Both the position numbers and the translations under genes were made by a program. A stretch of DNA of 63,461 nt, counting the filler, from Caldilineae bacterium (GTDB taxonomy: Bacteria > Chloroflexota > Anaerolineae > DTLA01), in NCBI GenBank assembly GCA_037446815.1. It is 5 parts of 5 records of this genome, joined end to end, with 100 filler letters (N's around TTAATTAATTAA, not from the genome) between each part and the next. Parts side by side here need not be neighbours in the genome. Positions count along the whole stretch, not along the records: positions 12,980 to 25,768 come from JBBIHX010000075.1; 4 more parts are not named here. One strand, given 5' to 3'. The notes under the pieces were generated by a model, which made no database searches, had not been told where the DNA came from, and saw only the letters and a list, made by a program, of their open reading frames with translations. Every line of letters starts with the position of its first letter. Position 1 is the first letter of the stretch. Shown in pieces: positions 12,880 through 15,976 of the stretch.

Positions 12880-12979
12880 NNNNNNNNNNNNNNNNNNNNN
12901 NNNNNNNNNNNNNNNNNNNNNNNTTAATTAATTAANNNNNNNNNNNNNNNNNNNNNNNNNNNNNNNNNNNNNNNNNNNN
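12880..12979. other. Artificial contig linker
   Basis: 100 nt: N-run, TTAATTAATTAA, N-run. Confidence 0.99.
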
Positions 12980-13092
12980 ACGCGCGACCTGTACGCTCGG
13001 CTGACCGCCCAGGGCGAGTGATTTCACCCGCTCGTAACACTCTGCGCAGGCGCGTGCCCCCGCGCAGATGCCTACACCGAGTTACCTCATAG

Positions 13093-13198
13093 GAAACCTT
13101 GACGTATCTCCCCTCCGTGTGAGCCTCATGTGAGTGCCATGTGAGTACCCCTGTGCTATAGTGGAGCCAGAAACACGACAGCACAGGAGGAAGTAGCC
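13093..13198 (+). promoter_or_regulatory. Promoter/leader copy 1 with three 11-bp-phased TGTGAG repeats, extended -10 and SD
   Basis: TGTGAG at 13118, 13129, 13140; TGcTATAGT with hexamer 13157-13162; AGGAGG; near-identical to 14868-14972. Confidence 0.7.
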
Positions 13199-14026
13199 AT
13201 AAAGACCCTGTTCGCCAAACTCGCCGATCCCCGCTGCATTCAGGTGGCGCGGCTGACCGCAACAGTGATACTGATACTGGCATTCACAACGCAGAGTGCG
13301 GCCAATGGAAGGGAACCGCAGTTCATCAATGGCGTCCTATCACCCATTTGCTTCCCCGTAGGGCCAGATGCACTAGACCTGGGAGTGACAGGCTATGATT
13401 GCGGGCGAGAGCCAGACGGAAGTGTGGTCGTTCTCTTTGCGCATCGGGATACGCATCGGAGCGGGAAGATTCGAATCCGCAGGTCCACTGACAGAAAGGA
13501 AGTCCTCCTGGAACTCGTGCGAGAAGGGAAATCTGCGCTTCTGATACACTGGAATCCGGCCGGCATCGACGTTTGGCTGCAAGACGCCAACGGCCGAGGG
13601 GGGCAGTTTGTGTACGATGAGCGAGCCCGTGGATGGAAACCTGTTACCGAGGGCGCGCAATCGGTCCTGTGCGCGAACCAGGAAGATGCCAAGATAGTGG
13701 CGGCCGTGTATGGCGACCTCCAGGCGCGTTCCGTTGGTCAAATTATCCAAGGATTGGTATTATGGAAGCCCCTTGCCTTGGTCGGAGACCGCGCTGGTAA
13801 CGAGGTCTACTGTCCGTGCACAGGGCCTTGGTCTCGCGGTGATGCGGTACATACCACTAGGTCAGGCTGTTGCTACGATGCAACCAATGATGTGAATGTA
13901 AGATGTTGGAATCAGTGGTGCATTGGGTGCTGCCAGCTCGGAGACTGTGATGCTGCATGTCTGGTTGATGACTACTTTTGCGTGTGCGGGCGCTCTGGCA
14001 GAGAGTGCGGCGGGGCTTGCCATTGA
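13199..14026 (+). CDS. Secreted protein with Cys-rich C-terminus; start is a mutated ATA at 13199 or GTG at 13244
   Basis: In-frame (I)KTLFAKLADPR leader shared with the peptides at 14973 and 15135; hydrophobic signal ending QSAA; 14 Cys in the last ~73 aa. Confidence 0.65.
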   Translation: MKTLFAKLADPRCIQVARLTATVILILAFTTQSAANGREPQFINGVLSPICFPVGPDALDLGVTGYDCGREPDGSVVVLFAHRDTHRSGKIRIRRSTDRKEVLLELVREGKSALLIHWNPAGIDVWLQDANGRGGQFVYDERARGWKPVTEGAQSVLCANQEDAKIVAAVYGDLQARSVGQIIQGLVLWKPLALVGDRAGNEVYCPCTGPWSRGDAVHTTRSGCCYDATNDVNVRCWNQWCIGCCQLGDCDAACLVDDYFCVCGRSGRECGGACH

Positions 14027-14316
14027 CTCTGCCCTTCGCAGCGGGCAAGACTGTGTGGATGTATGACAGTCTGAGCAGGTTAGCGCGGTCGGCGAATGAG
14101 GAGAGCCGTGGGATGACCTTCGCAGAGGTGCAGCAGGGCGCTCCCCGTAATCAGGCTACAAACGGATCTCTGTCAGCCGCTGCTTGATGTGCCCGACGTT
14201 GGCGATGCTCGTCGGGTCCCGGCCGTGCAGCAGCACGCCAGTCGGTGCTCTTTACGGCTTCTATCCCGGCGAATGCGCAAGGATATAGAATGCAGAACAT
14301 GGAGGAGTGATGCACG

Positions 14317-14535
14317 ATGCCGCAGATTACTCTTACCGAGTTTGCAGTGCTGTTTGCAGTAGTGGCGCAGACAGCCTTTTGGGTATGGATGCTAGTAGAA
14401 GTACTGACCCGGGAGACGGATTCCCGACAGAGAGTACTGTGGAGCATCGCGATCGTGCTCGGGCAGGGGCTTGGCGCTCTGCTTTACTTCGCTTTTAGGC
14501 GGCCGTTGGCCAGCAAGAAGCGATCTGATCCCTAG
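14317..14535 (+). CDS. Small two-TM protein, PLDc_N (cardiolipin synthase N-terminal)-like
   Basis: FWVWMLVEVL...RVLWSIAIVLGQGLGALLYFAFRR pattern; SD GGAGGAG. Confidence 0.75.
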   Translation: MPQITLTEFAVLFAVVAQTAFWVWMLVEVLTRETDSRQRVLWSIAIVLGQGLGALLYFAFRRPLASKKRSDP

Positions 14536-14867
14536 GGCGCGAGTCTGCGATGGTCTGAGATGAGGCATTCAGCACGGCGAAAGGATCTCGGACGGCGGGT
14601 GTCCACGTTGCATGGGTTGGGGCTTCTCCTGCTTCTAGGCCCGGTTCTTCCGTTTGTTCAGTTGGCGCCCCTTCGTTTCTTGCCTTGTAGCACATCTCCC
14701 AACTCGTTTCTATGGCACGCCAGCGCCTTTGCCGTTGTTCTTGGCAGTGTGGGACTCATCCGGAGATAGACGGCCACTGCCGGCTCTTGCTCCAACGCTG
14801 CTTCCAAGTCTCTGGTCCACGTCTACGGTCCCCGCACGCCCTTCGCAAGGAGTTCGCTTTACATTAA

Positions 14868-14972
14868 GAAACCTTAACGTATCCCCTCTCTGTGTGAGCC
14901 TCATGTGAGTGCCATGTGAGTACCCCTGTGCTACAGTGAAGCCAGAAACACGACAGCACAGGAGGAAGTGCC
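14868..14972 (+). promoter_or_regulatory. Promoter/leader copy 2 with three 11-bp-phased TGTGAG repeats
   Basis: TGTGAG at 14893, 14904, 14915; TGcTACAGT with hexamer 14932-14937; SD AGGAGG. Confidence 0.7.
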
Positions 14973-15098
14973 ATGAAGACCCTGTTCGCCAAACTCGCCG
15001 ATCCCCGCTACGCCAAGGTTGCGTGGGTTGTGCTTGGACTCATCGGGCTCATCATCGCGGGCGGCGCGCCCACCGGCCCCAGCGGCCCCGGCGCCTAG
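14973..15098 (+). CDS. 41-aa peptide, copy 1: MKTLFAKLADPRYAKVAWVVLGLIGLIIAGGAPTGPSGPGA
   Basis: AGGAGG SD 7 nt before ATG, GC3-rich codons, TAG stop; below the ORF-track length cutoff. Confidence 0.85.
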   Translation: MKTLFAKLADPRYAKVAWVVLGLIGLIIAGGAPTGPSGPGA

Positions 15099-15134
15099 TC
15101 CCACCGACACAGAACGCTCACAGGAGGAAGTGCC

Positions 15135-15260
15135 ATGAAGACCCTGTTCGCCAAACTCGCCGATCCCCGCTACGCCAAGGTTGCGTGGGTTGTGCTTGGA
15201 CTCATCGGGCTCATCATCGCGGGCGGCGCGCCCACCGGCCCCAGCGGCCCCGGCGCCTAG
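15135..15260 (+). CDS. 41-aa peptide, identical copy 2
   Basis: 14957-15103 matches 15119-15265 (period 162), including the SD. Confidence 0.85.
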   Translation: MKTLFAKLADPRYAKVAWVVLGLIGLIIAGGAPTGPSGPGA

Positions 15261-15555
15261 TCCCAGAACCCATACCGATTCCCAGCCGCCGCAGCATCTT
15301 GTGCGGCGATCCTCCCGATAGGGGGCAACGGAATCTGCTTGAGGTGGCCTTTCGGAAGGTGCCAGGGAACGCCGTCCGGGCCGCCGAGTTGGACGCGGTT
15401 GGTCGGCCAGATTTCATCTCAAAGCAGCGATCATTGCAGGCCTCGCGGGTTCGCACGATTCTGAGGCTTCCAATACGACACAGCGTCGCAAGCGGTTTGC
15501 CTGCGCCCCCTATCGTTTTGCATACGCGGATGGTACCAAGACGAAGGAGAACGAA

Positions 15556-15786
15556 ATGACTGCGGAACTCTTGAACGTGCTCGTGGGCGCGGCGGTAACG
15601 GATGGCGAATTCTGCCAGACCCTGCTGAGCAACCCGGGTCGGGCCGCGCGGCAGTTCGGCCTTGCGCCCGAGGACGTGGAAGTGGTGTCCAAGATTCGCG
15701 CGCGCTCGCTGGCCGAGTTTGCGGGGCAGTTGCTCCTCTGGATGCCGACCGAGCCCAGGGAATCCCGATACGCCCGAATGCAATAG
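15556..15786 (+). CDS. Small NHLP-clan (Os1348/Franean1_4349-like) protein
   Basis: LNVLVGAAVTDGEFCQTLLSNPGRAARQFGL resembles the A..D..FR..LL.DP nitrile-hydratase-leader pattern; SD AAGGAG. Confidence 0.65.
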   Translation: MTAELLNVLVGAAVTDGEFCQTLLSNPGRAARQFGLAPEDVEVVSKIRARSLAEFAGQLLLWMPTEPRESRYARMQ

Positions 15787-15873
15787 CGCGCCTGCCGGTA
15801 CAAGTCGGCCAGGCACACCGTTCTGTACGTACGCAGCCTGCTGCGGCATGTCCGTGGCAGGCTGTTGTTGTTG

Positions 15874-15942
15874 CACCGCAGAGACAGAGAGCACGCAGAG
15901 AAAAAATCAGAATTCCTCCGCGCCCTCTCCGTCTCTGCGGTG
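15874..15942. repeat. Inverted repeat of CACCGCAGAG type between convergent genes
   Basis: CACCGCAGAGAC...GTCTCTGCGGTG. Confidence 0.7.
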
Positions 15943-15976
15943 CAATGAGCGTTCTCCGCGGTGAACGTGAGCGCGG

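Follow-up and report, generated by a model that had tools for sequence, protein, structure and literature searches.

How does the gene for a secreted, cysteine-rich (Cys-rich) protein come to carry the promoter and the first codons of a neighbouring peptide gene? The question is raised by a locus in the genome of a Caldilineae bacterium of the phylum Chloroflexota (GenBank assembly GCA_037446815.1, here G000), in which a promoter-leader module found at a tandem pair of genes for 41-aa peptides occurs a second time, in front of the Cys-rich gene. The window, i.e. the whole stretch of DNA that was analysed, is 63,461 nt long and consists of five contigs joined via N/TTAATTAATTAA spacers, with joins at 12880-12979, 25813, 38446 and 50990, so that features close to these positions are close to contig ends. 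The locus is located on contig C75 (JBBIHX010000075.1; window coordinate = C75 + 12979), and the genes and promoter elements placed on this contig below lie on the plus strand. The G000 assembly has 265 contigs, 3.19 Mb in all, and is 93.6% complete. For comparison, 61 related genomes were searched (4 other congeners among them), as were contigs assembled from four public runs (Logan), three of which gave matching pieces; the relatives compared most closely are G004, a congener, and G003, G001 and G002. Our answer, to which as a whole we give a probability of roughly 0.8, is that the module was copied onto a horizontally acquired cassette of three genes, that the two copies were then homogenised, that the cassette is prone to loss, and that an ATA found in place of the start codon is specific to G000.

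The first-pass annotation of this DNA had described 13093-13235 as a near-copy of 14868-15009 containing phased repeats, a -10 element, a Shine-Dalgarno (SD) motif and the codons for KTLFAKLADPR, and both a repeat finder and BLAST bear this out. The repeat finder matched 13090-13194 to 14865-14969 at 93% and 13196-13252 to 14970-15026 at 86%, with one indel between the copies, an extra A at 13195 in the upstream one. BLAST of 13085-13240 against the whole assembly returned, apart from the query itself, just two matches: the second copy at 94% (query 6-151, E 3e-58) and, at 96%, the SD-leader of peptide gene 2. Copy A (13090..13235, 94% to copy B) comprises the operator, promoter, 5' untranslated region (5'UTR), SD and codons 1-12, in frame with the Cys-rich open reading frame (ORF); copy B (14865..15009) extends from the operator to codons 1-12 of peptide gene 1. 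In copy A, three GTGAG heptad cores forming a candidate SARP operator stand at 13119-13123, 13130-13134 and 13141-13145, an exact 11-bp spacing, and are followed by an extended -10 element (TG-c-TATAGT, 13154..13162, with TATAGT at 13157-13162) and by the SD AGGAGG at 13185..13190. Their counterparts in copy B are the heptads at 14894-14920 (cores at 14894, 14905 and 14916), a -10 reading TACAGT at 14932-14937, and an SD at 14960-14965. The SD is 8 nt from the ATA in copy A and 7 nt from the ATG in copy B, and the common leader codons encode KTLFAKLADPR. Neither of the two leader mRNAs is predicted to fold stably (z +1.68 and +0.79, which means less structure than in shuffled sequences), and a search of 12981-15700 against Rfam had 0 matches at E<=1.

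Copy A begins only 110 bases from the start of C75, a position that would suit an assembly artefact at a contig end, the danger that the first-pass annotation had itself named. The layout of G004 speaks against this. On a 19.9-kb contig of that genome the order is the end of a regulator gene, a promoter copy, a Cys-rich gene beginning ATG-KTLFAKLADPRYA..., a PLDc_N gene, a membrane-protein gene, the second promoter copy and two peptide genes; a separate metagenome contig is laid out like G004, and in both the two leaders stand 1911 nt apart, enclose these three genes and are joined to them at an identical junction. Capture of the promoter by the two genomes independently would need the identical junction to arise twice. 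Misassembly and independent capture were rejected on the G004 layout, and we regard either as scarcely credible.

The two copies of the module form the borders of the cassette. Its first ORF, that of the Cys-rich protein (13199..14026), has 275 codons counted from the ATA and 260 counted from a GTG further in. The second encodes a small membrane protein of 72 aa with a PLDc_N domain (14317..14535; PF13396, 35.8 bits vs a cut-off of 23.3), 76% identical to its G004 counterpart, and the third encodes 69 aa (14560..14769), of which the last ~40 residues match a 129-aa membrane protein of G004. Codon usage had been said to be less GC-biased here than in the surrounding genes, and the GC content of third codon positions (GC3) agrees, at 0.59, 0.63 and 0.59 for the cassette ORFs vs 0.82-0.88 for the 10 other ORFs of the window that were measured (0.857 for the peptide genes). 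In G004 the cassette ORFs have a GC3 of 0.62-0.68 and the other genes measured 0.75-0.89. Within the Cys-rich ORF of G000, the first 14 codons have a GC3 of 0.71 and the rest 0.60 and 0.54. By these figures the cassette looks foreign; integrase and transposase domains were absent from its three ORFs, to which the scan was confined.

The distribution of the Cys-rich protein, and above all the N-termini of its relatives, indicate what exactly was fused to what. The gene is present in two of the 61 genomes searched, G000 and G004 (the latter one of the four other congeners), and the two proteins are 68% identical over all 275 residues. The family at large comprises 162 representative clusters (50% identity) at E<=1e-3. 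Among the best 150 of the 162 representatives, only the G004 orthologue gives an alignment to residues 1-15, and it is likewise the only one of 18 family members whose N-termini were read to possess the shared leader. The outside homologues that were read have ordinary signal peptides of their own or a longer N-terminal domain; in some members of the family a domain of ~110 aa containing a CxxC motif stands at the N-terminus, before a segment that either spans the membrane or resembles a twin-arginine translocation signal. The closest outside homologue (P0013, a fragment, 47% identical) begins with M-R, a hydrophobic core and ...FTTQSAA, and its alignment to the G000 protein opens at about position 17, which places the native start next to GTG 13244 and implies that the fusion added 14-16 codons. 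Only the n-region of the signal peptide, 12-14 residues, is then predicted to have been captured, while the cassette itself supplied the hydrophobic core and the cleavage region with ...FTTQSAA. The first-pass annotation had proposed that a foreign cassette captured both the regulation and the export N-region of the peptide locus. The foreign GC3, the second copy of the module and the existence elsewhere of a Cys-rich family with its own N-termini uphold that proposal, except that the captured export element shrinks to the n-region. It had also left room for homologues starting natively at GTG 13244 under a promoter of their own; P0013 does start beside this codon, but in the congener the duplicated promoter leads into a gene that opens with ATG and the shared codons, which shows the fusion to be real.

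How old the fusion is, and why the copies are nonetheless so alike, can be read from a four-way alignment of copies A and B of G000 and G004 in which sites were classed by column. Columns 120-280, from the heptads to about codon 16, contain 19 species-specific and 0 paralogue-specific sites (106 identical, 31 other, 4 gapped). After about codon 16, in columns 280-309, the pattern is reversed, with 0 species-specific and 11 paralogue-specific sites (10 identical, 8 other, 0 gapped). Species-specific sites include synonymous changes (GCC GAT vs GCT GAC) and positions in the spacers. Synonymous divergence (dS) of the flanking genes is 0.17-0.19 between G003 and G004 and 0.52-0.60 from G000 to both, with G001 at a similar distance; for the cassette genes of G000 and G004 it is 0.66-1.0, at least as much as for the flanks, which makes the cassette as old as the divergence of these two genomes. 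An old cassette bordered by young-looking promoter copies is most simply explained if gene conversion homogenises the two copies within each genome. Copy A has more private changes than copy B in both genomes, which suggests that copy B is the conserved donor.

The presence of the cassette in G000 and G004 and its absence from G003, a close sister of G004, mean that a single gain needs at least one loss. In G003 the regulator gene ends ~260 nt before the promoter, and the locus consists of the regulator's intergenic region and one promoter placed directly on two peptide genes, with no remnant of the cassette. Recombination between the direct repeats would leave exactly this state, and the empty site of G003 is probably a secondary loss rather than the pre-insertion state. 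The direct repeats likewise predict recurrent loss of the cassette, of which G003 is the expected product. The first-pass annotation had looked to related genomes for a site with the promoter directly on the peptide gene. Such an arrangement does exist in G003, in G001 and in two metagenome contigs, the last three with two or three peptide genes behind the promoter and a different upstream context, but that of G003 is more likely a later deletion than the original site. A third state is seen in a metagenome contig of run X3 (4153 nt, matching window 12990-14857), in which 13028 is joined to 14618 with 457 other letters between, followed by a promoter of the copy-B type; this variant is without the Cys-rich and PLDc_N genes and keeps the tail of the third gene. 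Between G000 and G004, the ratio of non-synonymous to synonymous divergence (dN/dS) of the Cys-rich gene is 0.02 for the C-terminal 75 residues and 0.42 for the remainder, which speaks for maintenance. The cassette as a whole appears dispensable and tends to be lost.

In G000 the fusion has acquired a further peculiarity at its start codon. As had been read from the sequence at first, the start position of the Cys-rich ORF is ATA (13199..13201) and the frame is open to 14026, which the ORF analysis reproduced; the same position is ATG in copy B (14973) and in the G004 orthologue. The ATA lies 15 codons 5' of the GTG at 13244..13246 and in frame with it, this GTG being the first canonical in-frame start and one codon from the start of the closest outside homologue. 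From the upstream stop at 13142-13144 to 13199 there is no ATG, GTG or TTG. Since G004 and the metagenome contig have ATG, the start is ATG in the sister lineage and the ATA is derived in G000; on this comparison, the change from ATG to ATA is specific to G000. It may damp expression or mark decay, the two possibilities raised in the first-pass annotation. ATA is annotated as a rare start codon, and initiation from AUA in E. coli amounts to 1-2% of that from AUG, or 0.02-3% in a second reporter (bioRxiv 10.1101/063800). The present case resembles such near-cognate starts in having ATA as a rare start codon; it differs in that the measurements come from E. coli and the host here is a member of the Chloroflexota, and in that this ATA derives from an ATG conserved in both the paralogue and the orthologue.

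One way to understand the ATA is that it is no longer used, the Cys-rich protein being translated from GTG 13244 with the 15 upstream codons now part of the 5'UTR and a near-native precursor as the product. This is possible, if on balance somewhat unlikely. As the first canonical start in frame, the GTG would give a short basic n-region, a hydrophobic core and ...QSAA, just as in P0013, and the weakness of AUA initiation in E. coli points the same way. However, no SD motif precedes 13244, whereas AGGAGG stands before the ATA, and the equivalent GTG of G004 is one codon further on, so that GTG 13244 is not a conserved start.

The cassette might instead be decaying in G000, with the change to ATA silencing its first gene and the locus heading for the loss seen in G003. 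A lost start codon, a third gene reduced to its last ~40 residues relative to G004, a relative, G003, that lacks the entire cassette and the metagenome relative in which 13028 and 14618 are joined around 457 other letters would all fit such a course. Yet the 275-codon frame is intact, as is the PLDc_N gene, and the Cys-rich protein keeps 8 of 8 invariant and 11 of 11 nearly invariant columns of its family. Residues derived relative to six outgroups number 20 in G000 and 22 in G004 (31 undecided), i.e. without acceleration in G000, and any silencing would necessarily be very recent. Decay is accordingly a reading that we doubt.

It is also conceivable that the true codon is ATG, and that both the ATA and the extra A at 13195 arose as consensus errors when a metagenome-assembled genome (MAG) was built from short reads, two 94% identical copies competing in this region. 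Only 4 nt separate the two differences, which fall within a repeat close to the end of a contig, and public-run contigs of the copy-B type match copy A at 90%. On the other side, copy A has seven more private differences over 105 nt, which means that the assembler did separate the copies, and nothing positive indicates an error. The public-run pieces on 13093-13233 either have the copy-B states at 13159 and 13164 or continue into a peptide gene, and 13199 is not spanned by any that belongs to this organism. We consider an error improbable, and a derived ATA in a genuine fusion remains the reading that we adopt.

The question of what controls the module leads to the gene upstream of it. The 3' end of a STAND-TPR-SARP regulator gene, its final 14 codons and the stop, occupies 12980..13021, and C75 begins inside this gene; residues 1-718 of the regulator, 86% identical to the G003 orthologue, are found at the end of contig C253, so that the gene is interrupted by an assembly gap. 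In G003 the orthologue is 1066 aa long and contains an AAA/NACHT-like ATPase domain, TPRs and BTAD (E 4.7e-22); of the last 247 aa of the regulator, residues 4-242 align to the AfsR SARP domain (E 2.6e-5). The gene is directly upstream of the module in G003 and G004, and in G000 its two ends are divided between C253 and C75. Exact triple heptads occur twice each in G000 and G004, once each in G003 and G001 and not at all in G002, in every case at these promoters; controls have 0, and the G000 assembly contains none other than the two promoter copies. Matches with one mismatch are as frequent as those of a reversed-pattern control. The GTGAG cores are invariant in all 8 promoter copies compared (from four genomes and two metagenome contigs), with spacers that vary, and the best -35 candidate, GTGCCA, has 3 of 6 consensus matches.

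Two reports describe SARP sites as direct repeats of heptamers, for which 11 bp is the classical unit and three a number met with in some cases; the repeats overlap the -35, and the proximal one is 8 bp from the -10 (PMC10972967, PMC11301090). The operators of DnrI, ActII-ORF4, VlmI, FdmR1 and PimR are given in the former as three heptameric direct repeats with 4-nt spacers, again in 11-bp units (PMC10972967). The module has in common with these operators three repeats at an 11-bp period upstream of a promoter; it differs in its GTGAG core and in its distance to the -10, and it lies outside the actinomycetes and outside a classical antibiotic gene cluster. More distant peptide homologues in two other families of the class (genomes G011 and G051) are encoded directly 3' of TPR-BTAD genes. 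At the locus of G051 (L013 1740-1800, minus strand), three copies of GGTGAGT follow one another at a 12-bp period; at that of G011 (L012 1405-1440), TAGTAAAT is found twice at 11 bp, before TGgTAAAAT. These distant loci share both the adjacency of the regulator and the phased repeats, from which it follows that the link between regulator, repeats and peptide is conserved, and we infer that the heptads are the SARP operator of the regulator.

A known relative of this arrangement is the AfsR-afsS pair of Streptomyces coelicolor, in which the regulator activates a gene for a small protein, afsS, which we take to be the gene neighbouring afsR. AfsR is alike in possessing a SARP module (an OmpR-type DNA-binding domain and BTAD), an ATPase and TPRs. 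The order of domains is opposite, with the ATPase and TPR part N-terminal and the SARP module C-terminal in the present protein; the host here belongs to uncultured Chloroflexota, and the target consists of tandem genes for 41-aa hydrophobic peptides behind a predicted operator of three GTGAG heptads.

Several observations weigh against the account as a whole. The Trans_reg_C match of the regulator is weak (E 0.0084 in the G003 orthologue) and below the cut-off, and GTGAGTA is 9 nt from TATAGT, vs a canonical 8. Binding of the regulator to the heptads is something that we infer, and gene conversion is deduced from the pattern of sites, to which co-selection of both promoters with the regulator could add; beside this caveat, the synonymous and spacer sites share the species-specific pattern. 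In G001 and G002 (L035 on G001:C153, L034 on G002:C154) the regulator gene is followed by an apparent 16S rRNA gene, recognised by eye, and not by peptide genes, with ~700 nt between that contain several promoter-like TTGACA...TATAAT pairs; no peptide gene was found in G002, though the regulator is present. The adjacency of regulator and peptide genes is thus not universal. Gain and loss of the cassette are told apart by the distances of a few genes and not by a rooted tree, and the ATA may be a base-call error of the MAG.

On the account that we prefer, a module of ~145 nt would have been fused in frame, in the ancestor of G000 and G004, just 5' of the native start of an acquired cassette. 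This module, whose home is the tandem 41-aa peptide genes that adjoin the STAND-TPR-SARP regulator gene, runs from the three GTGAG heptads, phased at 11 bp, through the extended -10, a 5'UTR of ~30 nt and AGGAGG to codon 12; the cassette would have brought the Cys-rich secreted protein, the PLDc_N small membrane protein and a further small membrane protein. The fusion implies that the cassette would be read from the same regulator-dependent type of promoter as the peptides. Gene conversion, the simplest mechanism, with a tract ending at codons 12-16, would since have kept the copies of each genome alike, the cassette would later have been lost in G003, and the third gene would have been shortened in G000. 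In G000, finally, ATG would have become ATA, with either weak initiation from AUA or a shift to GTG 13244 that restores a near-native signal peptide.

Gene families that share a leader in this way are familiar from the Borrelia 'upstream homology box' lipoprotein genes and the Mycoplasma vlp genes, in which unrelated or diverged coding bodies are preceded by a near-identical upstream region and first signal-peptide codons, kept alike by recombination. The present case differs from these in having two copies only, at one locus, in that sharing stops at the n-region and the module is a regulator-specific operator-promoter, and in that one partner is an acquired gene with a signal-peptide core of its own. 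It would be a clean natural case of a foreign gene wired into a host regulon via a copied operator, promoter, 5'UTR, SD and leader, through in-frame fusion at the start codon, with recombination inside each genome holding copy and original alike from then on. Current views are not overturned by it. The locus further points to an uncharacterised module, present in at least three families of the class, of a STAND-TPR-SARP regulator, an "AGGAP" peptide and an NHLP-clan peptide, and offers a system suited to the study of SARP-type control outside the actinomycetes.

The Cys-rich protein itself has 18 cysteines over its whole length in G000 and 16 in G004. Judged by eye, an n-region (12-18 residues) precedes a hydrophobic core and ...QSAA in its signal peptide, and the N-termini of homologues are similar. 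The structure model, built from an alignment of 62 sequences, is confident, with a predicted local distance difference test score (pLDDT) of 87 and a predicted template modelling score (pTM) of 0.76, and comprises N-terminal helices (residues 2-9 and 11-30), a beta-rich domain at 50-175 and a compact C-terminal domain of ~70 aa at 205-275. Pfam gave 0 matches for the protein and four of its homologues, and NCBIfam 0 for the protein. A Foldseek search of PDB with the whole-protein model found nothing at E<=0.001 (template modelling score ~0.10 in the top rows), and VIA-align against 48,161 chains reached a best Z of 6.7, with none >=8. The 162 clusters make up a secreted family without a Pfam or NCBIfam model or a detectable solved fold. 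A locus search with an alignment of 8 sequences gave three loci. In a Peptococcaceae MAG, a LytTR response regulator is encoded before the homologue and a PLDc_N protein (26.5 bits vs 23.3) after it, a homologue in a Bacillota MAG adjoins an ABC exporter and a LuxR-type regulator, and a PLDc_N partner is present in two of three independent loci. A literature search on PLDc_N brought up unrelated work on Leishmania plasmids. That the two genes encode a disulfide-rich secreted effector and its membrane partner is no more than a reasonable guess.

Peptide gene 1 (14973..15098) encodes 41 aa, and peptide gene 2 (15135..15260) lies within a 147-nt tandem repeat that is 100% identical; peptide genes occur in tandem in 2 or 3 copies. 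Homologous peptides (P0002-P0005) are 75-80% identical overall, with an identical tail (...AGGAPTGPSGPG), an invariant ADPRYAK and a variable hydrophobic core, and the more distant homologues of loci L012 and L013 retain ...AGGAP after the core. Longer proteins with the N-terminus of the peptide were not found at E<=1, in a search that missed even the known G004 fusion. Downstream, at 15556-15786, a 76-aa ORF matches NCBIfam NF038399, 'Os1348 family NHLP clan protein' (44.4 bits vs a cut-off of 40), and also, below the cut-off, Pfam Frankia_peptide. ORFs of 88-92% identity to it likewise follow the peptide genes of G001, G003 and G004 and those on two metagenome contigs, and a weak Frankia_peptide match follows the distant peptide in G051 as well. 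It may be that the regulator, the AGGAP peptide and this NHLP-clan peptide belong to a single module.

A more speculative idea, and in our view a long shot, is that the regulator, heptad promoter and tandem pro-peptides make up a peptide autoinduction (quorum-sensing-like) circuit in Anaerolineae. The invariant tail (...APTGPSGPG) of the exported 41-aa products would be sensed by the TPR-ATPase part with SARP output, a bacteriocin-like Cys-rich protein and the PLDc_N protein as its candidate immunity partner would have been recruited by copying of the module, and gene conversion would keep the outputs in step. RRNPP peptide quorum sensing pairs the gene of a TPR regulator with that of a short pro-peptide, which has an export signal and a conserved C-terminal tail. 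Here TPRs and adjacency are seen in three families of the class, and the tail is identical among peptides of 75-80% overall identity; the regulator is a STAND ATPase with SARP output and not an HTH-TPR protein of the RRNPP family.

Beyond the 76-aa ORF, between it and a convergent gene for a PTPS-related membrane protein, an inverted repeat at 15871-15945 has 33-nt arms, 85% complementary, around a 9-nt loop, and may be a bidirectional terminator.

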